This document shows positions 1,978 through 62,890 of a stretch of 62,890 nt of DNA, one piece after another. A model generated the notes under the pieces. The model was not told the DNA's origin and made no database searches. It worked only from the letters and a program-made list of their open reading frames with translations. The number at the start of each line of letters is the position of its first letter. The first letter of the stretch is position 1. Position numbers and translations under genes: made by a program. The DNA lies in the IMG/VR virus record IMGVR_UViG_3300047498_000007, positions 1 to 62,890 of that record; one strand, 5' to 3'. The DNA comes from a virus.

Positions 1978-2170
1978 ACTCCCAAGATTCGCATCCGATT
2001 GGCTTAGTTTCTTCAGGCACCATGCTATCCCACTTTTTACAAGCCCCTTCATTATAGTTAAGGCAGTTCGAACAAGGGGTATTCACAGGAATTTTTGACA
2101 CATAATCCATGACATTTTGAAGGGCAATTATGAGGCTATTCTTATCATGGGCATTAAAAGGCGATGTCAT
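1952..2170 (-). CDS. small Cys-containing protein (72 aa)
   Basis: Four Cys residues (CSNC...C...C). It overlaps the helicase stop by 17 nt, which suggests translational coupling. Confidence 0.5.
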   Translation of the reverse strand: MTSPFNAHDKNSLIIALQNVMDYVSKIPVNTPCSNCLNYNEGACKKWDSMVPEETKPIGCESWEFNRDSPPF

Positions 2171-3854
2171 GTTCTCTCTCCTCAGTTGATTGTATTACTT
2201 TACTGTTCATGTTTCCTTCTTCGAAGACCATCGGCTTGTCAGATTTCACAAAGTCATAAGCTAATATTCTTATCCAACTTCCATCTTTTTTGACTTTGAT
2301 TCTAGCAACCCTTGTACTATCAATTTCTTCCATACGTCCTAATGCTTCTTCCACATTGGTGGGGGGCAATTGTCTACCACCTCTTACCATCCACCATTCT
2401 TCTGCTTTTTTTCTAGGAAACTGTTTTTCATGGCCAAAACATACCCATTCTGAAACCCACGCATGGGGAGTTTTATACATAACTCTCAAACTCGATGGTT
2501 CCGTTTGTCCAAACTTTATATTTGGCTCGTATGTCGTCGTTAGAACTTTGAACCACTGTGGAATTTCACTAATAACTGGTTCATTGGACATTGGTGCAGC
2601 AGAAGATGCCTTAGTTGCATGTTTTATTTTACGTTCATGACCTTCAAAAATATAACCACAATCTTCACATTCTTTTTGATCTACAGCACATACGCTCTGA
2701 CACTTTGGACATATTTTTCCTTCGCGTATCTCTTTCTTTTTGCGAGAGCCATCCTGTGGAACTATATGCGTTATTGGACCGTGACGTTCAAAATTTTGAG
2801 CAAAATCAAGAATAAGACAATTTTCTTTTCCAGGACTTAATCGCATACCGCGCCCACACATTTGAGTCAGAAGTCCAGGACTCATGGTAGGACGAAGCAA
2901 ACAAATCATATCAATATTCGGCGCGTCGAAGCCTGTTGTTAAGACGGAGACATTTGTTATAGCTCGAATGTTACCATTCTTAAATGCAGACAAAATACTG
3001 TCTCGTTCAGGTTTTGGAGTTCTCTCGCTAATAGTTTCTGTTTTTATACTAAGTTCATTCAATTTGTCTCGCACATGTTCTGCATGATCGATCGTAATAC
3101 AAAAAATCAACCACGTTTTTCTTTCTGCTCCATAACTTAGTAATTCTTTGATAGCTGCATTTGTCATTCTATCATTATCAAATTCATTCAATGCTTCTTT
3201 GATGGAAAATTCTCCAGCTTGGATGGCTAATTTGTCTGTTTCTCCATGAGCTATCGCGCCTTTACTGATTAATGGAGATAGAAATTTATCTTTCACTAAT
3301 TTTGTAAGAGGCAAGTCGTAAGCAATATCAGAAAATATTGCGTCTTCTCCTGTATGCAAATAGCCAGACCTAAGACGGTAAGGAGTTGCCGACAATCCAA
3401 TCACTCTTAATCCTGGATTTATTGCTTGCATTCCTGATAAAAATGTACGGTACATTCCACTATCACTGTCTGAGATTAAGTGGGCTTCATCGATAAGAAT
3501 TAAGTCTCTCCATCCTATAACTTCTGATTTTTTATAAACAGATTGGATACTCGCAAAAGTAATTTTATTGTGAGCTTGTCTTTTGTTTAAACCCGCTGAG
3601 TAAATCCCAACATTAGCTTCTGGCAATAATTTCAACAATGCAGAATAATTTTGAGAGACCAGCTCTCTGACATGAGTAAGAAGTAATATTCTTTGATTTG
3701 CAAATTGCATTGCATCTTCACAGACCTTAGCCTGCACCAAAGATTTTCCCGAACCAGTCGGTAAGACTAACAGGGGATTGCCAGTCTCATGGTTGGCAAA
3801 CCAATTGTATAACGCTTGCACAGCATCAAGTTGATAAGGTCTAAGTTCAAGCAT
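2154..3854 (-). CDS. SF2 DEAD/DEAH-box DNA helicase with internal zinc ribbon
   Basis: LRPYQ (Q motif), PTGSGKS (Walker A), LILIDEAH (DEAH), SATP, TGFDAP, QMCGRGMR (motif VI), then CPKCQ...CEDCG. Confidence 0.9.
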   Translation of the reverse strand: MLELRPYQLDAVQALYNWFANHETGNPLLVLPTGSGKSLVQAKVCEDAMQFANQRILLLTHVRELVSQNYSALLKLLPEANVGIYSAGLNKRQAHNKITFASIQSVYKKSEVIGWRDLILIDEAHLISDSDSGMYRTFLSGMQAINPGLRVIGLSATPYRLRSGYLHTGEDAIFSDIAYDLPLTKLVKDKFLSPLISKGAIAHGETDKLAIQAGEFSIKEALNEFDNDRMTNAAIKELLSYGAERKTWLIFCITIDHAEHVRDKLNELSIKTETISERTPKPERDSILSAFKNGNIRAITNVSVLTTGFDAPNIDMICLLRPTMSPGLLTQMCGRGMRLSPGKENCLILDFAQNFERHGPITHIVPQDGSRKKKEIREGKICPKCQSVCAVDQKECEDCGYIFEGHERKIKHATKASSAAPMSNEPVISEIPQWFKVLTTTYEPNIKFGQTEPSSLRVMYKTPHAWVSEWVCFGHEKQFPRKKAEEWWMVRGGRQLPPTNVEEALGRMEEIDSTRVARIKVKKDGSWIRILAYDFVKSDKPMVFEEGNMNSKVIQSTEEREHDIAF

Positions 3855-4596
3855 CTTGCCAACAAAATTCTCTGAATTTACACCATTTACAAATAAACAT
3901 TTCTGGTTTGCTTGCCGCTCTCTCTGGCGGTTCTTTAGCTTTCAGAATGCGATCTTTTTTGGTTAGCATTGCCTTATAAACAACTGGTTGAAATTCAGTG
4001 CGACAACTAATCTCGTCTCTTCCGCCAGGAGTGGAGCAAACAAGATAATGCCTATCAATAACAGTGTCATAAATTTCTGATAATTTACCCATATAAATTT
4101 GTGCTTGAACAAAGAATGTATAATCCCATTCTTTGAGAGCGCCTTTATTGCCAAATTTTTCAATACACTTTTTTAAATCATTAAACTTTTTTTCATTGCA
4201 AGCTTTGGCTTCGAAAATATGCGTCTTAGTTGGAGCTTGAAGCAATCCTTTGATAATACCATCCACATGACCGCCGAACCTTCCTTCTTGAAATCCAATT
4301 TGTTCTTTTGTTACTTCATCGATATCCCATAACTGGATCCCAGAAACTAAACGAAGTCGATCCTTGATAAGCTGTTCTGTGCGATGCCCGTCTTCTATCG
4401 CGGCACATCCTTTGTATTCGATTGGTTCAGCTTTTTCAGCATGATAAAGTTGATAATAAATAAAACGTTCACATTCATGGCCGAGTGTACTTGCCCCCAG
4501 ATAATCACGTTTCGGTTTAGAATTATCTCTATCTTCTACCGCTTTACGCATAGCGACAAGAGTAGGATCTTCATCCATGTTTGGAAGTAAAACCAT
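3847..4596 (-). CDS. Cas4/RecB-like PD-(D/E)XK exonuclease with Fe-S Cys cluster
   Basis: GGHVDG (Asp), IFEAKA (E-x-K) and QAQIYM (QxxxY). One N-terminal Cys (GHEC) plus a C-terminal CKWCKFREFC. Confidence 0.8.
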   Translation of the reverse strand: MVLLPNMDEDPTLVAMRKAVEDRDNSKPKRDYLGASTLGHECERFIYYQLYHAEKAEPIEYKGCAAIEDGHRTEQLIKDRLRLVSGIQLWDIDEVTKEQIGFQEGRFGGHVDGIIKGLLQAPTKTHIFEAKACNEKKFNDLKKCIEKFGNKGALKEWDYTFFVQAQIYMGKLSEIYDTVIDRHYLVCSTPGGRDEISCRTEFQPVVYKAMLTKKDRILKAKEPPERAASKPEMFICKWCKFREFCWQDA

Positions 4597-4598
4597 GA

Positions 4599-5816
4599 TT
4601 AGCCCTTAATACAAACGACTTGTTTAAGCGTATGCACTATCTCAACTAAATCCGATTGTGCGGCCATGACAGCATCTATAGATTTATAAGCCATTGGAGT
4701 CTCATCAATTACATCTTTGTCCTTCCGGCATTCAACCCCCATGGTTGCCTGTATATGATCTTCAACAGTATATTTTTTAGCTGCTGCTGTGCGAGACATT
4801 CTGCGGCCAGCTCCATGAGAACATGAGCAAAAACTATCTTCATTTCCTTTGCCGCAAACTATATAAGACTGAACGCCCATTGAACCAGGAATAATACCCA
4901 AGTCGCCTAAACGCGCACGTACAGCACCTTTTCTCGTGAGCCATACATTTTTACCAAAATGGTGTTCTTTGCTCACATAATTGTGATGGCAATTTACTGC
5001 CATTAATGACGTTTCAAAAGGTCTACCCAATGATTTTACTATTGCTGATATAACAAGTTCCATCATGATTTCACGATTGGCCAACGCAAAACTTTGTGCC
5101 CAATGTAAAGCCTTCATATAATCAGCAAATAATTCTGAACCTTCAGGAATATACGCCAAATCCACATCAGGCAAATTAATAAACCATCGACGCATATCTT
5201 CTTTGGCTTTTTCAATAAAGTATGATCCGATTTTATTTCCAATTCCACGTGATCCGCTGTGTAACATAATCCATACATCTTGATTTTCATCGAGGCATAT
5301 TTCGATGAAATGATTACCAGTTCCAAGAGTCCCAAGATGTGCAATACAACCTTCAGAAGCACGCTCTATTTTTTCATGCTTGGTAACAATTTCGGCCAAT
5401 CCGCCAGACATAGAAGCAAATTTGCTCATTACACTTGTTGGAATATCAGTATGACGACCCTTATCGTTCGCACCGCCATTGTCTGAACGGCCATGAGGAA
5501 CTGCCATTTCAATCGAAGATCTCACTGCAAATAAATTGTCCGGTAGATCTTTTGCTTTTAATGAAGTCTTAACGGCCATCATCCCGCAACCAATGTCAAC
5601 GCCGACAGCAGCTGGAATTATTGCACCAACCGTTGGTATTACTGAACCAACTGTCGCCCCCATTCCCCAATGTACATCAGGCATTACGGCTATATGTTTA
5701 TGAACAAAAGGCATAGACGCAACATTTAATAGCTGTTGACGTGCAGCATCTTCAAGTTCTACGCCATCAATCCATGCTTTAATTGGTTTTTTATTTTCTT
5801 CTACGATAACTTGCAT
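4599..5816 (-). CDS. rtcB: RtcB-family RNA 3'-phosphate/2',3'-cyclic phosphate ligase
   Basis: All the RtcB signature blocks are present: MPDVHWGMG, VDIGCGM, GTGNHFIE, HSGSRGIGN, CHHNY, SHGAGR. Confidence 0.95.
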   Translation of the reverse strand: MQVIVEENKKPIKAWIDGVELEDAARQQLLNVASMPFVHKHIAVMPDVHWGMGATVGSVIPTVGAIIPAAVGVDIGCGMMAVKTSLKAKDLPDNLFAVRSSIEMAVPHGRSDNGGANDKGRHTDIPTSVMSKFASMSGGLAEIVTKHEKIERASEGCIAHLGTLGTGNHFIEICLDENQDVWIMLHSGSRGIGNKIGSYFIEKAKEDMRRWFINLPDVDLAYIPEGSELFADYMKALHWAQSFALANREIMMELVISAIVKSLGRPFETSLMAVNCHHNYVSKEHHFGKNVWLTRKGAVRARLGDLGIIPGSMGVQSYIVCGKGNEDSFCSCSHGAGRRMSRTAAAKKYTVEDHIQATMGVECRKDKDVIDETPMAYKSIDAVMAAQSDLVEIVHTLKQVVCIKG

Positions 5817-5832
5817 CTAATTCTCCATAAAT

Positions 5833-5910
5833 TGGTCAGGAAGGGAGGATTTGAACCTCCGACCCCCGCATTCCAAGTGCGGTATTCTAACCAGACTGAA
5901 CTACTTCCTG
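5833..5910 (-). tRNA. tRNA-Pro (anticodon UGG), CCA encoded
   Basis: Manual cloverleaf fold: CAGGAAG-TA-GTTC-AGTCTGGTTA-GAAT-A-CCGCA-CTTGGAA-TGCGG-GGGTC-GGAGG-TTCAAAT-CCTCC-CTTCCTG-A-CCA. It has a 7-bp acceptor stem, U8, U33, a TTC T-loop, and is 78 nt long. Confidence 0.9.
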
Positions 5911-6010
5911 AATGATGGAAGCGAGTAGGCGTGTAGCGACGCCTCGTGTTAGTTTCTCCCTTTCGGGCTACCCTCCATGTGCGATACCAAGGAGGCTCTC
6001 GCCTTAACAC
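5911..6010 (-). other. GC-rich structured leader between the DUF669 gene and tRNA-Pro (possible ncRNA or processing element)
   Basis: On the minus strand a closing helix GCGAG/CTCGC encloses three hairpins: CCTCC-N14-GGAGG, CCC-GAAA-GGG and AGGCGT-N6-ACGCCT. It is clearly more GC-rich than its surroundings. The ORF called here (5801..6010) overlaps the tRNA. Confidence 0.3.
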
Positions 6011-6562
6011 TTACCTCTTAGCCCAAGCTGGACGACCACCCACACTCGCGCCCACTGCTTGTGCAGGATCTGGAGCTGTCTGATGGTTTTGTTGAGGCGT
6101 TGCTGCGACTGGTTTTGCAACTGCAGGCTGTGCAGCCGATCCACCGATTGACTTCACAGTTCCTTTACGGAAAATAAGTTTATTCTTCGCTGCATAATTA
6201 TCCTTTGCAGGATCGACACCAACAGTTCCTAAAAACTTCTTGAAGTGCAACGAAGAGCTATCCCCATTGGGGGCGTTAGGTTGTCCGACAGCAGCTTCAC
6301 ACAAAGCCTTCCACTGAGATTTTGCAATATCAGTAGCTTGCTGGCTCTTGTTCCAAAGATTGAACATGTGGAAAACCTTACGTCCTTCAAATTCACCTTC
6401 TGCAACTGTAAATGTGCAGCTAAGATATTCTCCATCTCCTGCGTTTGTTGCTTTCCTCTCTGAGGCTTCCATGTAAAGTATATATTCACCTGGAGGAAAT
6501 ACAGTAAAGCCTTCATTCAATTCTTCTGCGTTGCTTGTATCAACATCCTGCATCTGGGCCAT
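6011..6562 (-). CDS. DUF669-like phage protein (putative ssDNA-binding)
   Basis: The N-terminal pattern FTVFPPGEYILYMEASERKATNAGDGEYLSCTFTV...GRKVFHMFNL resembles DUF669. It sits next to an AAA_24 ATPase, as is usual for this family. Confidence 0.6.
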   Translation of the reverse strand: MAQMQDVDTSNAEELNEGFTVFPPGEYILYMEASERKATNAGDGEYLSCTFTVAEGEFEGRKVFHMFNLWNKSQQATDIAKSQWKALCEAAVGQPNAPNGDSSSLHFKKFLGTVGVDPAKDNYAAKNKLIFRKGTVKSIGGSAAQPAVAKPVAATPQQNHQTAPDPAQAVGASVGGRPAWAKR

Positions 6563-6617: not shown

Positions 6618-7400
6618 CTAAGCAGCTTCTTGTTGTGTCGTCATTGCTTTATTCAATTCAGCTTCTAAAGAAGGCCAATCAAAAGGTATCGTCGCTGGTA
6701 AACCAAAACGATTCCCTGCGAGATAGGCCGGACTTTCTTGAGTGTGAAAGAATACTCTCTCACTCGTTCCTGCCTTTTTGATTTCTTTAAGTCCTTCTTT
6801 TTTCTTTGTAACAAAAGTTTCTTTATTCACGAATAATATACCATCAGCCCACTCTTTAATTATGGAGGCTGAAGAGCTTCCTTTGTCGTTATTTCTTAAC
6901 TTCATCGTGTATCGATCATAACTCTCAGTCAATGGATTATCATAACGTGTGATAACTTCATGAGCTAACATTATGATCATAATGCCCTTATGAACACGAA
7001 GATCATCCAATGCACTTAACACAGTCTTCCAGAGAGTTTGAGCCGTGGCATAACCCGCGCCATAACCAACATCTGCAATCGAAGTCTTTCCATGTTCTTT
7101 TGCAGCCTGTTCAAATAACAGTGTTTCAATCCAGTCTATCGTATCAAGCGTGCAGATATTGAAAGGATGTTCTTGGGTATAAAGTCCCTCCAAGGCACCC
7201 ATGAACTTATCATAAGAATCAAGTTCGCTCTTTTCAATACGAGCAGCATTATGAAATCCAGAACCACCCTCCACGTCCAAGATAATGTTATTCGGTATGG
7301 TGGAAGCAAGATGTGTTTTACCAATCTTAGGCGGTCCATACATTACCAAACGTGGGGGCGTGAGAGACTTACTGGTAGTAATTTTACTGAAATCGATCAT
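6618..7400 (-). CDS. AAA_24 / Sak4-like RecA-fold ATPase (recombination mediator)
   Basis: Walker A is MYGPPKIGKTHLAS, followed by ILDVEGGS. A hydrophobic Walker B (IIMLAHE) is present. The synteny with DUF669 and the helicase is typical. Confidence 0.8.
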   Translation of the reverse strand: MIDFSKITTSKSLTPPRLVMYGPPKIGKTHLASTIPNNIILDVEGGSGFHNAARIEKSELDSYDKFMGALEGLYTQEHPFNICTLDTIDWIETLLFEQAAKEHGKTSIADVGYGAGYATAQTLWKTVLSALDDLRVHKGIMIIMLAHEVITRYDNPLTESYDRYTMKLRNNDKGSSSASIIKEWADGILFVNKETFVTKKKEGLKEIKKAGTSERVFFHTQESPAYLAGNRFGLPATIPFDWPSLEAELNKAMTTQQEAA

Positions 7401-7402
7401 AT

Positions 7403-7960
7403 TTAACTTCCTTCCTTGAGGTTCAATAGTGAAAAAATCTTGATAGCATGTGCTGCTTGTGTCTTGGCGTCATCAAGAGCGTTGTGATGAGTGCCAACTC
7501 TTTCTAAAGTTATCGGACCATGATACATTGACCTTAAAGTACGATAACAACGATTATTCCAAAACCTCCAAGGATAAGCCATAGAAGCAGCTTGATAAGC
7601 AGCGGCCAGAACATTGTTGTCAAAATCAGAGCCATTGCCCCACATGCGAATCTTTTTAGCTTCATTCATACCGTGGAGATAAAGTTCAAAATCTTTAAGA
7701 ACTTTAGGTAATTCTGGAGCATTAGGAGAATTGCTTTCTCTATATGCGGCTTTAGCCTCTTCACTTTGTTTCTCCCACCAATCTAATGTTTGCGCGTCAT
7801 CTCTCAATCCATGATTTCTACAAGATTGATGACTTACTATTGAATAAAATTCTTTTCCAAGTCTACCAGTTTGAAAACTAAACTCTACAGCCCCAATAGA
7901 GATTAATCCACATCCGGCAGATGAACCAAAAGTTTCGAGATCTAGCATCACATGTGTCAT
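7403..7960 (-). CDS. DEDDh 3'-5' exonuclease (Rv2179c-like fold)
   Basis: MLDLETFG (Exo I), WGNGSDFDNNVL (Exo II), HHNALDDAKTQA (Exo III, DEDDh). Confidence 0.8.
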   Translation of the reverse strand: MTHVMLDLETFGSSAGCGLISIGAVEFSFQTGRLGKEFYSIVSHQSCRNHGLRDDAQTLDWWEKQSEEAKAAYRESNSPNAPELPKVLKDFELYLHGMNEAKKIRMWGNGSDFDNNVLAAAYQAASMAYPWRFWNNRCYRTLRSMYHGPITLERVGTHHNALDDAKTQAAHAIKIFSLLNLKEGS

Positions 7961-8620: not shown

Positions 8621-10846
8621 GTGTCATCACCATTTTCTTTATCTTATAAAAAACTTATTGCTATGGGATACAGTCCAATTCCTATTATGACGCTTAGTAA
8701 ACGTCCAGCTATTCCCAAATGGCCAGAATTCGGCATTACTCCTGCCGATGAATCGACACTTGAACGATGGAGTTATTGGCCAGGAATGAATGTCGGAGTA
8801 TGTGGTGGTGTAGGTGGAAAAATTGTTATTGCTGATCTTGACCATAATATAGATGGTTTACACGAAAAAATTAAATCAATACTCCCACCGTCGCCTGTTG
8901 GTAAAACAGGAGCGATAGGTGAAAGTTGGTTTTATCAATTCAATGGCCAGAAAAGTCAGGGATTTTCTAAAGACGGTCAACGAGTTTTAGATATTCTTTC
9001 TCAAGGCCGTCAAACCGTTATACCGCCAAGTATACATCCAAATGGACATCCTTATCGTTGGATCACAAAACAAACATTAGAAGATACGCCATCCTATGAA
9101 CTACCAAACATATCCATCCAACATCTTCATGAGATCGCAGCTTTATTTAAATCACAACCAATTTTGCATGTTCCAGAGCCGAGACACACTGAAGTCTATG
9201 CCGACACAACCACAGAAGAAATAGCAGCAGCATTAGAATATATCGATGCCGAAGATTACAGTAGTTGGATAAACGTAGGGATGTGTCTTAAAGATAAATT
9301 AAGACAAAAAGGTTTTCAACTTTGGGACAACTGGAGTGCTAAATCTCAAAAATACAAACAATCTGAAATGCAAACAAAATGGAATAGCTTTAAAGGCAGT
9401 GGACTAACTATAGCGTCAATTTTTTTTACGGCGATGGACTCAGGATACATCAACACACCATCAGAATTCCTTGATGCAGTGTATGAAGATTTCGAACTTG
9501 ATGGCAAAAAAACAGGCTACTCTAAACCGGAGACAGTAGCTGCAACTGTAATTACAGAAATTGAGAAACCCAAAAAAACAGATCTTGTTACTTTTCCTTC
9601 AGAACTTTTAAAGGCTCCAGGATTGCCTGGGCATATCGCTGAATTTATAAATCGTACTTCTCTTATGCCTCAACCAGTGTTGGCGCTCGCAGCAAGTCTA
9701 GCTGCTGCAGGATCTCTGATGGGCCGCAAGGTTCGTGGTGATACCAATGTAAGGACTAATATTTATATTCTTGGATTAGCTCCTTCTGGATCTGGAAAAG
9801 ATCACGCTCGAACAATTATCAAACGCATGTTCCATGATACAGGACTTGGCAAATTAGAATTGGGAGTCCCTGCTTCCAGTGCTGGCCTCGTTAGTGCCTT
9901 ACAGGCAAGTGGTGAAGGTAGAGGCATTGTTCTATGGGACGAATTTGGGAGAGTTTTAAAACAAATCATGGGACCGAAAGCTGGTACTCATGAGCGTGAT
10001 ATTGTCACTGCCATGATGGAATTGTTTTCATCTTCTCAATCAATTTATATGGGTAAGTCTTATGCTAATCACGATGGTAAAAAACCATCCAAACCTATAG
10101 ACCAGCCATGTCTTTCGATTTATGGGACAAGTGTTCCTTCTCACTTCTATGATTCATTATCAGGCAGTGACGCAATTGATGGATTTCTATCTCGATGGTT
10201 ATTGTTTGAGTCGAAGGACTACACCATGGAAGAAGAAGATCCAGAATTAGCTTTTTCTGCTGTTCCTCAAGCCATGATTGATTTGTGCAAAAAGTGGAAA
10301 GAAATGCCCTTTAATTCTGATGTTAACAAAGGCAACTTGGATGATGCTGTGAGGGTAGTGCCAAAATTAATTCCTTGCAGTCCACAGGCCAGTGTTCACT
10401 TAAAGGCTTTTGCTACAGATACAAGGAAATCTGCCATGAAGAAGGAGCTTTCAGGTGATATAACAGGCTCTATTTGGTCAAGAGCTGGAGAGCACGCTAG
10501 ACGATTGGCTCTCATAGGTTGTGAAGGTGATGTCATAGAATTAAAAGTTGCAGAGTGGGCCGTGAAACTAGCTAAGAATTGTTGCGATTATATGTCTTAT
10601 GCAATTAATGATTATGTATCTTCATCAGAACTTGAATCACAAACCAAACGTGTTCTACGTTATGTGAGAGACAGAAAATCAGCAGGAGATGGATGGATTA
10701 GCCGGGCTGAATTAACAAGGGCATTTCAAGCAATCCAAGCTAGAACTAGAAATGAAATTTTATCCTCACTAGCAGAACGTGGCGAGTTGATAGAGGAAAG
10801 ACACGCTGGCTCTGGCCGTCCAAAAATACGTTATAAGGCTACCTAA
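8621..10846 (+). CDS. Prim-Pol primase/polymerase + PriCT-2 + DUF3987-type helicase/NTPase
   Basis: IADLDH and VIPPSIHPNGHPYRW indicate Prim-Pol. SSWINVGMCLK...LWDNWSAKSQKY...KWNSF indicates PriCT-2. GLAPSGSGKD is a Walker A and VLWDEFG a Walker B. The start codon is GTG. Confidence 0.85.
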   Translation: MSSPFSLSYKKLIAMGYSPIPIMTLSKRPAIPKWPEFGITPADESTLERWSYWPGMNVGVCGGVGGKIVIADLDHNIDGLHEKIKSILPPSPVGKTGAIGESWFYQFNGQKSQGFSKDGQRVLDILSQGRQTVIPPSIHPNGHPYRWITKQTLEDTPSYELPNISIQHLHEIAALFKSQPILHVPEPRHTEVYADTTTEEIAAALEYIDAEDYSSWINVGMCLKDKLRQKGFQLWDNWSAKSQKYKQSEMQTKWNSFKGSGLTIASIFFTAMDSGYINTPSEFLDAVYEDFELDGKKTGYSKPETVAATVITEIEKPKKTDLVTFPSELLKAPGLPGHIAEFINRTSLMPQPVLALAASLAAAGSLMGRKVRGDTNVRTNIYILGLAPSGSGKDHARTIIKRMFHDTGLGKLELGVPASSAGLVSALQASGEGRGIVLWDEFGRVLKQIMGPKAGTHERDIVTAMMELFSSSQSIYMGKSYANHDGKKPSKPIDQPCLSIYGTSVPSHFYDSLSGSDAIDGFLSRWLLFESKDYTMEEEDPELAFSAVPQAMIDLCKKWKEMPFNSDVNKGNLDDAVRVVPKLIPCSPQASVHLKAFATDTRKSAMKKELSGDITGSIWSRAGEHARRLALIGCEGDVIELKVAEWAVKLAKNCCDYMSYAINDYVSSSELESQTKRVLRYVRDRKSAGDGWISRAELTRAFQAIQARTRNEILSSLAERGELIEERHAGSGRPKIRYKAT

Positions 10847-11036
10847 TTTTCTGAATATTAGGAATATATATTGCTTTGCGTTTCCTGGTTTTCTCTTTTG
10901 GAGCAGGAACATATGTAATTCTTAAGTGATTTTCGCAATACGGCCTTCCAACAACAGTTGGCTCTCCGCAGAATACTATATTTGGCACATGACCATTTGG
11001 ATATAGACAACAACCACTTGGCGGAAAATGAATCAT
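10839..11036 (-). CDS. GcrA C-terminal-domain-like protein (65 aa)
   Basis: CCLYPNGHVPNIVFCGEPTVVGRPYCENHLRITY matches the remembered GcrA C-terminal motif C-x-W/Y-P-x-G...F-C-G...G-x-P-Y-C-x-x-H...Y. No N-terminal HTH is present. Confidence 0.6.
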   Translation of the reverse strand: MIHFPPSGCCLYPNGHVPNIVFCGEPTVVGRPYCENHLRITYVPAPKEKTRKRKAIYIPNIQKIR

Positions 11037-62421: not shown

Positions 62422-62890
62422 CCCCGCAGAAAAGGAAACCAGATGGGAAGTGAGAGCAGAAAACTACAACCACAAAAAGGAGAAATACGATGAGTAAGTT
62501 TGATGATCTAACAATAACAGAAGCAAAAGAACTAGCGGCGATGTTTAACAACATGCCAGTTAAATCTTGCAACGGAAAACATCCCATGATGGGTAAACGT
62601 TGTTTGATCCGCACCTACAGCGCTGGTGTTCATATTGGCGATATTGTCCATATCGATGGCATGGAAGTTAAGTTAGAAAATGCTCTACGCCTTTGGAAAT
62701 GGGAAGGTGGAGGATTGTCGCTTAGCGCTGTTGCGAATGACGGTATTAAAAGCGGTCGTTTGAATAAAACAGGTGAAGTTTATCTCACCAATGTCATTGA
62801 GATGATCCCGACGACAAAAGAGGCGGAGAAAACCTATGCAAAGTTTGTTGAATAGAACTCACCATAACCATAATTGTTCCAGCTCCGGCT
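62421..62890. repeat. terminal direct repeat, right copy (same sequence as 1..470)
   Basis: See the left copy. The window ends 7 nt into the microsatellite. Confidence 0.95.
62490..62855 (+). CDS. duplicate of the 70..435 ORF (a product of the terminal overlap)
   Basis: The 121-aa translation is identical. Confidence 0.7.
   Translation: MSKFDDLTITEAKELAAMFNNMPVKSCNGKHPMMGKRCLIRTYSAGVHIGDIVHIDGMEVKLENALRLWKWEGGGLSLSAVANDGIKSGRLNKTGEVYLTNVIEMIPTTKEAEKTYAKFVE

Follow-up and report, generated by a model that had tools for sequence, protein, structure and literature searches.

Why would a phage genome keep a single tRNA gene, and keep it beside a gene for an RNA ligase? The question is raised by IMG/VR record IMGVR_UViG_3300047498_000007, a complete viral genome of 62,890 bp with direct terminal repeats, which we analyzed over its whole length (referred to as the window herein). 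It encodes a tRNA-Pro(UGG) followed by an RtcB-type ligase, and the same tRNA was found next to RtcB genes in otherwise unrelated viral backbones. On comparative sequence grounds, this recurrence supports a real functional or selective coupling of RtcB to the adjacent tRNA, above all to a tRNA-Pro(UGG) with A at position 37, and the comparisons show the pair to be accessory and mobile. The elements under study are the following.

4599..5816, minus strand: rtcB, a predicted 405-aa ligase joining RNA 3′-phosphate or 2′,3′-cyclic-phosphate ends to 5′-OH ends (Pfam PF01139, structure matches, motifs)
5817..5832, minus strand: spacer of 16 nt, ATTTATGGAGAATTAG, directly after the CCA end of the tRNA (read from the sequence)
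5833..5910, minus strand: tRNA-Pro(UGG), 78 nt including the encoded CCA at 5833-5835 (ARAGORN and Rfam RF00005)
5911..6010, minus strand: non-coding leader of 100 nt, part of the inserted segment (missing at the empty site of sister phages)

A first-pass annotation of this DNA had named the 405-aa open reading frame (ORF) an RtcB from six signature blocks. Our profile search agreed, with a full-length PF01139 match of 443.6 bits against a cut-off of 27 in which residues 28-405 span profile positions 1-426, and a six-frame search of the genome returned the same match as the ORF. All six blocks were located (DVHWG at residue 47, DIGCG at 74, GTGNHF at 165, HSGSRG at 186, HHNY at 277, and SHGAGR at 333), and in alignment they fall on the active-site blocks of P. 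horikoshii RtcB (1uc2/4dwq). Solved RtcB structures in the PDB matched at E values of 1e-41 to 1e-37, again with the active-site blocks aligned. The metal-binding set of the P. horikoshii enzyme is D95, C98, H203, H234, and H329; the predicted metal ligands of the phage protein are D74 and C77 in DIGCG, H169 in GTGNHF, H186 in HSGSRG, and H277/H278 in HHNY. Similarly, the nucleophile that forms the RtcB-GMP adduct is H404 in P. horikoshii and H337 in E. coli, and the GMP-accepting histidine is predicted to be H334 in SHGAGR, opposite CHGAGR of the P. horikoshii protein. By these comparisons, rtcB is a real, intact, and ordinary-looking RNA-repair gene with the full set of catalytic residues.

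The tRNA also proved to be as first described. Both ARAGORN and Rfam (RF00005, 69.7 bits against a cut-off of 29) called the 78-nt tRNA-Pro(UGG), and since its 3′ end reads ...CCTGACCA, the CCA is encoded in the gene. It is the sole tRNA of the whole 62,890-bp genome. Its sequence runs 5′-CAGGAAG...CUUCCUG-A-CCA, with U-G-G at positions 34-36 (5873-5875) within the loop C32-U33-U34-G35-G36-A37-A38. The identity elements for prolyl-tRNA synthetase (ProRS) are C1-G72, A73, G35, and G36. This set is kept in full and, apart from A37 (5872), the tRNA is canonical; at this position it lacks the G37 that is the substrate of TrmD. Neither A37 nor the minus strand had been remarked upon before, whereas the placement of the tRNA 16 nt upstream of rtcB on the same strand had been, and it stood. 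The spacer contains the rtcB ribosome-binding site, GGAG, 8 nt ahead of the ATG. By chance, a tRNA would fall in either intergenic slot beside RtcB in about 2 of ∼88 placements. On the other side of the tRNA, the leader is GC-richer and shows three hairpins, one of them a CCC-GAAA-GGG tetraloop hairpin. Its fold of -34.2 kcal/mol (z = -1.6) is no better than that of shuffles, and it had no Rfam match and no meaningful blastn match in other RtcB loci. A Y RNA or other structured RNA beside rtcB was considered as well and rejected, as Rfam scans at gathering and at E ≤ 10 gave the tRNA alone.

Is the junction peculiar to this phage? To define the sample, we took the best 80 IMG/VR relatives of the window RtcB (61-71% identity) and grouped their loci, with the window included, into backbones by common flanking ORFs. 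The flanking genes of the window were shared by none of the 80 RtcB loci, bar one weak exonuclease match. A tRNA lay within 150 nt of RtcB in 23/80 loci, with tRNA-Pro(UGG) by far the most frequent. Within 300 nt, 20 of the 69 unrelated backbones carried a tRNA, and Pro(UGG) was among these tRNAs in 16, corresponding to 18 loci when the window is counted. The tRNA-Pro(UGG) stood upstream and on the same strand as RtcB in 10 loci, behind spacers of 16-54 nt that are unrelated in sequence and mostly contain GGAG (some GGAG/AGGA), and downstream of RtcB in 6 loci, at gaps of 3 to 270 nt. The 18 RtcB-linked tRNAs have a median identity of 69%, yet C1-G72 and A73 are present in all of them. In a quick maximum-likelihood tree of RtcB (IQ-TREE), the Pro-linked rows were scattered; 14 changes were needed, and well-supported branches make at least 6 of them unavoidable.

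The enrichment is confined to the immediate vicinity of the gene. With one locus per backbone, tRNA density was 1.28 per kb within 150 nt of RtcB (1.15-1.28 over the estimates) and 0.03-0.05 per kb at 0.3-4 kb with one 29-tRNA array set aside, an ∼30-fold excess near RtcB across 68 backbones. The nearest tRNA was Pro(UGG) in 13 of the 20 backbones with a tRNA within 300 nt, and none of 49 farther tRNAs was Pro(UGG). As a control, we inspected the 80 closest cellular RtcB loci, mostly from Caulobacterales, Acidobacteriota, and Myxococcota. There, a tRNA lay within 300 nt in 6/80; in 3 of these 6, the one just upstream was Pro(UGG), which twice closed a large tRNA array. Judged across the loci compared, the architecture is a specific, recurrent, and minimal unit of a tRNA and an RNA-repair gene.

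Several further loci were recorded along the way. Arrays of 11-27 tRNAs lie within a few kb of an RtcB homologue in metagenome-assembled contigs filed as bacterial (L319, L811, L815, L822, L421, and L401), and in L811 and L815 the final tRNA-Pro(UGG) sits 36-37 nt before rtcB; these look like L-arrays, the bacterial tRNA arrays compared below, or like mis-binned phage or mobile DNA. One RtcB clade (L004, L005, L014, and L055) has tRNA-Lys(CUU) upstream and tRNA-Glu(CUC) downstream of RtcB, the C34 counterparts of the U34 tRNAs preferred by the anticodon nucleases PrrC, Cas13a, and PARIS. Among cultured RtcB phages, none of the four nearest has a tRNA closer than 1.5 kb to rtcB, and pf16, PHB04, Cp1R7A-A1, and CcrBL10 were dropped on this ground as carriers of the same junction. 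No GenBank phage match spanning the tRNA plus rtcB was found, and a 404-aa ORF beside a tRNA-Pro in Staphylococcus phage 6ec turned out not to be RtcB.

The base at position 37 was examined on its own account. In bacterial tRNA-Pro, TrmD methylates G37 to m1G37, which holds down +1 frameshifting and helps the tRNA to be charged (PMC8643618, PMC8384417). We scanned viral and bacterial collections with an anticodon-plus-T-arm pattern that admits either purine at 37 and fixes the T-arm sequence; the collection samples are arbitrary, and counts drawn from them are counts among the matches listed.

RtcB-linked tRNA-Pro(UGG): A37 in 16, G37 in 2
Viral tRNA-Pro(UGG), among the matches listed: A37 in 10, G37 in 61
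Bacterial tRNA-Pro(UGG), among the matches listed: A37 in 1, G37 in 105

A37 is thus found in 16/18 RtcB-linked tRNA-Pro, against ∼14% of viral and ∼1% of bacterial tRNA-Pro among the matches listed, and the difference between the linked set and the viral background is significant (Fisher p = 3.5e-9). The lone bacterial A37 tRNA-Pro among those matches belongs to an array of 11 tRNAs, with an RtcB 4 kb away. The same substitution was frequent in other m1G37 families (Leu-NAG, Arg-CCG, and Pro-CGG/GGG), with A37 in 79/151 viral vs 3/66 bacterial tRNAs (Fisher 8e-13), in a comparison of viral loci L002-L671 with bacterial loci L199-L318 and L672-L789 whose viral set includes loci picked for an A37 tRNA-Pro. 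This suggests that phage tRNAs trend generally away from TrmD dependence; we found no paper describing such a phage-wide A37 trend in m1G37 families.

These data bear on a reading in which the tRNA answers a loss of modification and not cleavage. An A37 tRNA-Pro would hold the frame at CCN codons when m1G37 fails, through S-adenosylmethionine (SAM) depletion or TrmD limitation in the course of infection, and RtcB would be linked for a separate or secondary reason. Indeed, tRNA-Pro depends on m1G37 to keep the frame and to be charged efficiently (PMC8643618, PMC8384417, PMC4519876), m1G37 deficiency is stated to leave tRNAs with A37 unaffected (PMC8643618), and the abundance of A37 in the other viral m1G37 families fits as well. 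What this reading leaves unexplained is the excess of A37 in RtcB-linked over other viral tRNA-Pro (p = 3e-9) and the very presence of RtcB, and neither a SAM hydrolase nor a TrmD inhibitor was identified among the ORFs scanned. We consider it very unlikely.

As a side observation, the cultured 49-kb Vibrio phage K172 (L796, OZ195673.1 10127-10454) has a four-tRNA cluster of Gly, Pro, Leu, and Gln, in which A37 is found in Pro(UGG) as well as in Leu(UAG), with no RtcB near. These tRNAs are labelled merely 'hypothetical protein' in the record, and the phage could serve as a laboratory model for A37 tRNAs.

Is the pair a fixed part of its operon or an addition to it? The genes on either side are listed here.

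2154..3854, minus strand: DEAD/ResIII helicase (Pfam/PHROG)
3847..4596, minus strand: Cas4-domain exonuclease, the downstream flank, beginning 2 nt after the rtcB stop (phrog_1990, 9e-41)
6011..6562, minus strand: SSB-like DUF669 protein, the upstream flank (Pfam DUF669; PHROG SSB families)
6618..7400, minus strand: AAA_24 ATPase (Pfam/PHROG)
7403..7960, minus strand: Rv2179c-like exonuclease (Pfam/PHROG)

The neighbors are all minus-strand replication/recombination genes, and the earlier placement of the tRNA and rtcB inside a replication/recombination operon is confirmed. Minus-strand scans with promoter and terminator consensus sequences, which were no richer than shuffles, gave no promoter-like or terminator-like site between the tRNA and rtcB, nor between the pair and the upstream genes. 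Since the two genes share a strand, are separated by 16 nt, and have no such site between them, their co-transcription, which had been proposed as probable, is plausible.

Searching for homologues of the AAA_24 ATPase led us to sister phages on contigs of 62.9 to 64.8 kb with 64-76% identity, where a search by exact peptide words of the Cas4 exonuclease had retrieved no relatives. In the sister loci L790, L792, and L794/L795, the order orf150, exonuclease, AAA_24, SSB, Cas4 nuclease, helicase is conserved, and the module is syntenic at 39-76% amino acid identity. The Cas4 exonuclease orthologues are 52-55% identical and follow directly behind the SSB gene. At the syntenic site, none of the three lineages has a tRNA or RtcB: in L795, only 3 nt separate the SSB stop codon from the nuclease start, and in L792 and L790 the slot holds a small ORF (69 or 113 aa) or HNH genes. 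In the window, the SSB stop (AGGTAAGTG...) is followed by the 100-nt leader, the tRNA, the 16-nt spacer, rtcB, and, 2 nt on, the nuclease start. The insertion therefore measures ∼1.41 kb (∼4597-6010) and starts right behind the SSB stop codon. Because sister phages keep the operon without both genes and L795 closes the gap to 3 nt, the tRNA-Pro and rtcB are, judged by synteny, accessory cargo in a plastic slot of the replication/recombination operon. A fresh import from a GC-rich donor was ruled out, as the GC and GC3 of rtcB are at the genome average (z about -0.5). Elsewhere in the sister phages, an AcrVA2-like ORF (PF26125) adjoins the primase gene in L794/L795 (4608-5327), and several HNH endonuclease genes lie within the replication module of L790/L792; from these, the region can be regarded as a hot spot where mobile and anti-defence cargo gathers.

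A plastic slot of this kind also invites the view that the two genes arrived independently. The tRNA would then boost CCA/CCU decoding in a host poor in tRNA-Pro(UGG), and RtcB would be an unrelated moron in the same slot. Codon usage is compatible with this, with CCA at 40% and CCT at 38% of the 934 phage Pro codons (78% together) and the A-ending share of Pro the highest among the four-fold families. That small ORFs or HNH genes occupy the slot in sister phages fits too, as do two possible hints of an alphaproteobacterial host, many members of that class being GC-rich: a GcrA C-terminal match (PF07750, 29.1 bits vs a cut-off of 26.9) over only the C-terminal 40 residues of a 65-aa ORF (10839-11036, minus strand), and Caulobacterales RtcBs as the cellular RtcBs nearest to that of the phage. 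At 41%, the GC content of the phage genome is a poor fit to the GC-rich members of the Alphaproteobacteria. Moreover, the cassette-free sister phages use CCA equally (36-55%), and a single tRNA is carried though all A/T-ending codons are favored. Nor would random co-insertion lead one to expect the same isoacceptor beside RtcB in 16 unrelated backbones of very different GC contexts. Separate arrival for codon supply is unlikely in our judgment.

We also asked whether the genome holds partners for RtcB. Six-frame searches of the whole genome gave no match to RtcA (RTC), archease, Rnl-type RNA_ligase (PF09414), TROVE/Ro60, or RlaP; among 20 accessory ORFs scanned against Pfam, none matched another RNA-repair function, a kinase, or a phosphatase; both approaches failed to find a prfH-like partner; and profile searches and Rfam scans placed no RtcR or Y RNA beside rtcB. 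From these negative scans, RtcB and tRNA-Pro make up the whole recognizable RNA-repair and tRNA content of the genome.

RNase P-processed tRNA-mRNA co-transcripts are common in bacteria, for example in the tufB operon, and the tRNA could be a passenger or a transcript-processing element of this sort while RtcB repairs rRNA or mRNA, such as 16S rRNA cut by colicin-E3-like or MazF-like ribotoxins, a task carried out in E. coli by RtcB/RtcB2. In the accessible text of the sources, bacterial RtcB religates MazF-cut 16S rRNA and RtcB2-PrfH mends colicin-E3 damage (PMC9304027, PMC9223846, PMC13166195). The absence of a prfH-like partner or other repair gene from the genome scans argues against such a role here. 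A pure processing element would need no conserved ProRS identity elements, no fixed anticodon, and no encoded CCA, all kept over 18 diverged copies (median 69% identity), and in the 6 loci with the tRNA downstream of rtcB it could not act as a 5′ processing signal. We regard this explanation as distinctly improbable.

For the coupling of tRNA and ligase, we propose the following mechanism. The segment at ∼4597-6010 would be a self-contained, horizontally mobile cassette of two genes, tRNA-Pro(UGG) and then rtcB, in a variable operon slot, and would be transcribed with the replication/recombination operon. RNase P and 3′ processing would free the tRNA, and the rtcB message would begin a few bases downstream. 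From its family membership, RtcB is expected to reseal directly RNAs with 2′,3′-cyclic-phosphate or 3′-phosphate and 5′-OH ends. Anticodon nucleases, HEPN enzymes, MazF-type toxins, and other metal-independent RNases leave ends of this kind. VapC had been counted among the sources of joinable ends by the first-pass annotation; that part is doubtful, because metal-dependent nucleases such as PIN/VapC leave ends RtcB cannot join. The tRNA would serve as an added proline decoder for CCA/CCN codons which, having A instead of G at position 37, would not need TrmD methylation and may evade enzymes that recognize the normal m1G37 loop. The pair would then be a 'repair plus replace' kit that sustains translation in hosts that damage tRNA or other RNAs. 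We regard this as the most economical mechanism and hold it with about even confidence. A bolder version is doubtful: that an undescribed, widespread bacterial defence or toxin cuts or inactivates tRNA-Pro(UGG) by way of its cmo5U34/m1G37 loop, that the cassette is a dedicated mobile antidote in which the attacker fails to see the A37 tRNA while RtcB mends the cut host tRNA, and that phages systematically swap G37 for A37 to escape TrmD and loop-recognizing nucleases.

The first-pass annotation had read the locus as a one-enzyme RtcB route, possibly backed by the phage's own tRNA, for surviving RNA-targeting abortive infection. The identities of enzyme and tRNA held, and the functional link between them gained support from the density excess; the counter-defence role itself is a plausible proposal. 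Variable presence among near relatives, which is expected of a counter-defence gene, was observed, and a conditional, host-dependent function such as counter-defence fits a pair that is an accessory insertion missing from sister phages.

A number of observations weigh against the proposed mechanism. No tRNA neighbors RtcB in 49/69 backbones, and among the matches listed only 3/111 A37 and 0/103 G37 phage tRNA-Pro lie within 300 nt of RtcB, so that A37 was abandoned as a specific hallmark of RtcB linkage. As most phage tRNA-Pro are not RtcB-linked and those 49 backbones have no tRNA, the partnership is facultative. The 80 RtcB loci are all relatives of one query, and shared ancestry with hitch-hiking of a tightly linked neighbor may account for part of the recurrence. 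A37 is generally common in phage tRNAs (52% of the families that normally require m1G37) and need not relate to RtcB, and host tRNAs at the ends of prophages may have raised the viral G37 background. We found no nuclease, defence, or toxin cutting tRNA-Pro(UGG) in the literature searched; the sole tRNA-Pro case found, in the accessible text of its source, was MazF-mt9 acting on the GGG isoacceptor (PMC4756823), and tRNA-Pro is left untouched by Cas13a. The same literature held no experimental evidence for any phage RtcB.

How does the cassette compare with known systems? Like Pnkp and Rnl1 of T4, which counter PrrC and its cleavage of tRNA-Lys, it is a phage accessory RNA-repair function, and the T4 system reverses anticodon-loop cuts with 2′,3′-cyclic-phosphate and 5′-OH ends. 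T4 repair is dispensable except in hosts that carry the PrrC nuclease. Unlike T4, which heals and seals with two enzymes and ATP, the RtcB family seals directly with GTP/Mn2+, and no Pnkp, Rnl, or RtcA was found here; the locus falls outside the T4-type heal-and-seal (Pnkp plus Rnl1) systems and may serve the same end. The short-form RtcB (about 405-408 aa) is orthologous to that of the E. coli and Salmonella operons rtcR-rtcBA and rsr-yrlBA-rtcBA, and in Salmonella the tRNA-like YrlA adjoins rtcB (PMC7790460). In contrast to these, the phage locus has no RtcR, RtcA, Ro60, or Y RNA, and its adjacent RNA is a true decoding tRNA; it is not an Rtc or Rsr-Y RNA repair operon.

RtcB homologues are encoded in 708 GenBank phage records, and phage RtcB has been proposed to religate cleaved tRNAs (PMC7824862, Iyer et al. 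2021; PMC7881722). The phage RtcBs in or near tRNA clusters of jumbo phages, cluster C mycobacteriophages, and Proteus phage Privateer (PMC7824862, PMC7881722) share with ours the enzyme family, the proposed religation of tRNAs cut by metal-independent RNases, and a loose association with tRNAs. They differ in that here one tRNA and one ligase lie 16 nt apart in a 63-kb podovirus without a further tRNA or repair gene, and in that the partner is specifically a tRNA-Pro(UGG) with A37. In bacteria, rtcB neighbors horizontally spread tRNA arrays that are co-induced under translational stress, and it has been suggested that the ligase and the spare tRNAs of these arrays jointly sustain the tRNA pool (PMC8421152, PMC10272220). 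Such L-arrays, exemplified by the Anabaena trn operon, resemble the cassette in tying horizontally spread spare tRNAs to RtcB with a proposed upkeep of the tRNA pool when toxin RNases act (PMC8421152, PMC10272220); unlike L-arrays, with their 13-43 tRNAs and the repressor TrcR, the cassette has a single tRNA, lacks a regulator, and is carried within a lytic-type replication operon. Phage tRNAs are also known to rescue infection from tRNA-cleaving defences (PMC11464382, PMC11555353, PMC10264068). Those of T5, set against PARIS, retron Eco7, and PrrC, likewise have a loop that departs from the cellular consensus beside the anticodon (PMC10264068, PMC11464382, PMC11555353). In the T5 cases, the tRNAs are those for Lys, Tyr, Thr, and the like and the nucleases are known, whereas here the tRNA is tRNA-Pro and a site of modification that is universally conserved is lost through the change from G37 to A37. 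The counter-defence idea is therefore not new, since phage RtcB as a tRNA repairer and rtcB beside spare-tRNA arrays are both published. The minimal one-tRNA architecture, the fidelity to Pro(UGG), and the A37 enrichment were not found in the literature searched.

Immunity based on tRNA cleavage (PrrC, PARIS, retrons, Cas13, Schlafens, and Cas12a3) is a fast-growing field, and the known phage answers to it are spare tRNAs or the two-enzyme repair of T4. If our proposal is true, a compact and mobile pairing of a single tRNA with a single ligase would make the simplest kit that both replaces and repairs, and the cassette is small enough for direct testing by cloning. The consistent use of a tRNA-Pro(UGG) without G37 would point to proline decoding or TrmD-dependent modification as an unrecognized battleground, and the A37 variant can serve as a natural experiment for asking why m1G37 cannot be dispensed with elsewhere. 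Should the pairing be mere hitch-hiking, it cautions against inferring function from gene adjacency in phage cargo slots.

As for the genome at large, we found no near-identical GenBank phage for the 62,890 bp. The TerL of Pseudomonas phage AF shares 54% identity with that of the window, and those of epsilon15-type podoviruses share ∼49%. A DUF6948 ORF occurs at 70-435 and again at 62490-62855, at 79.4 bits each; identical scores at both ends of the record are expected if the ORF sits within the direct terminal repeat.

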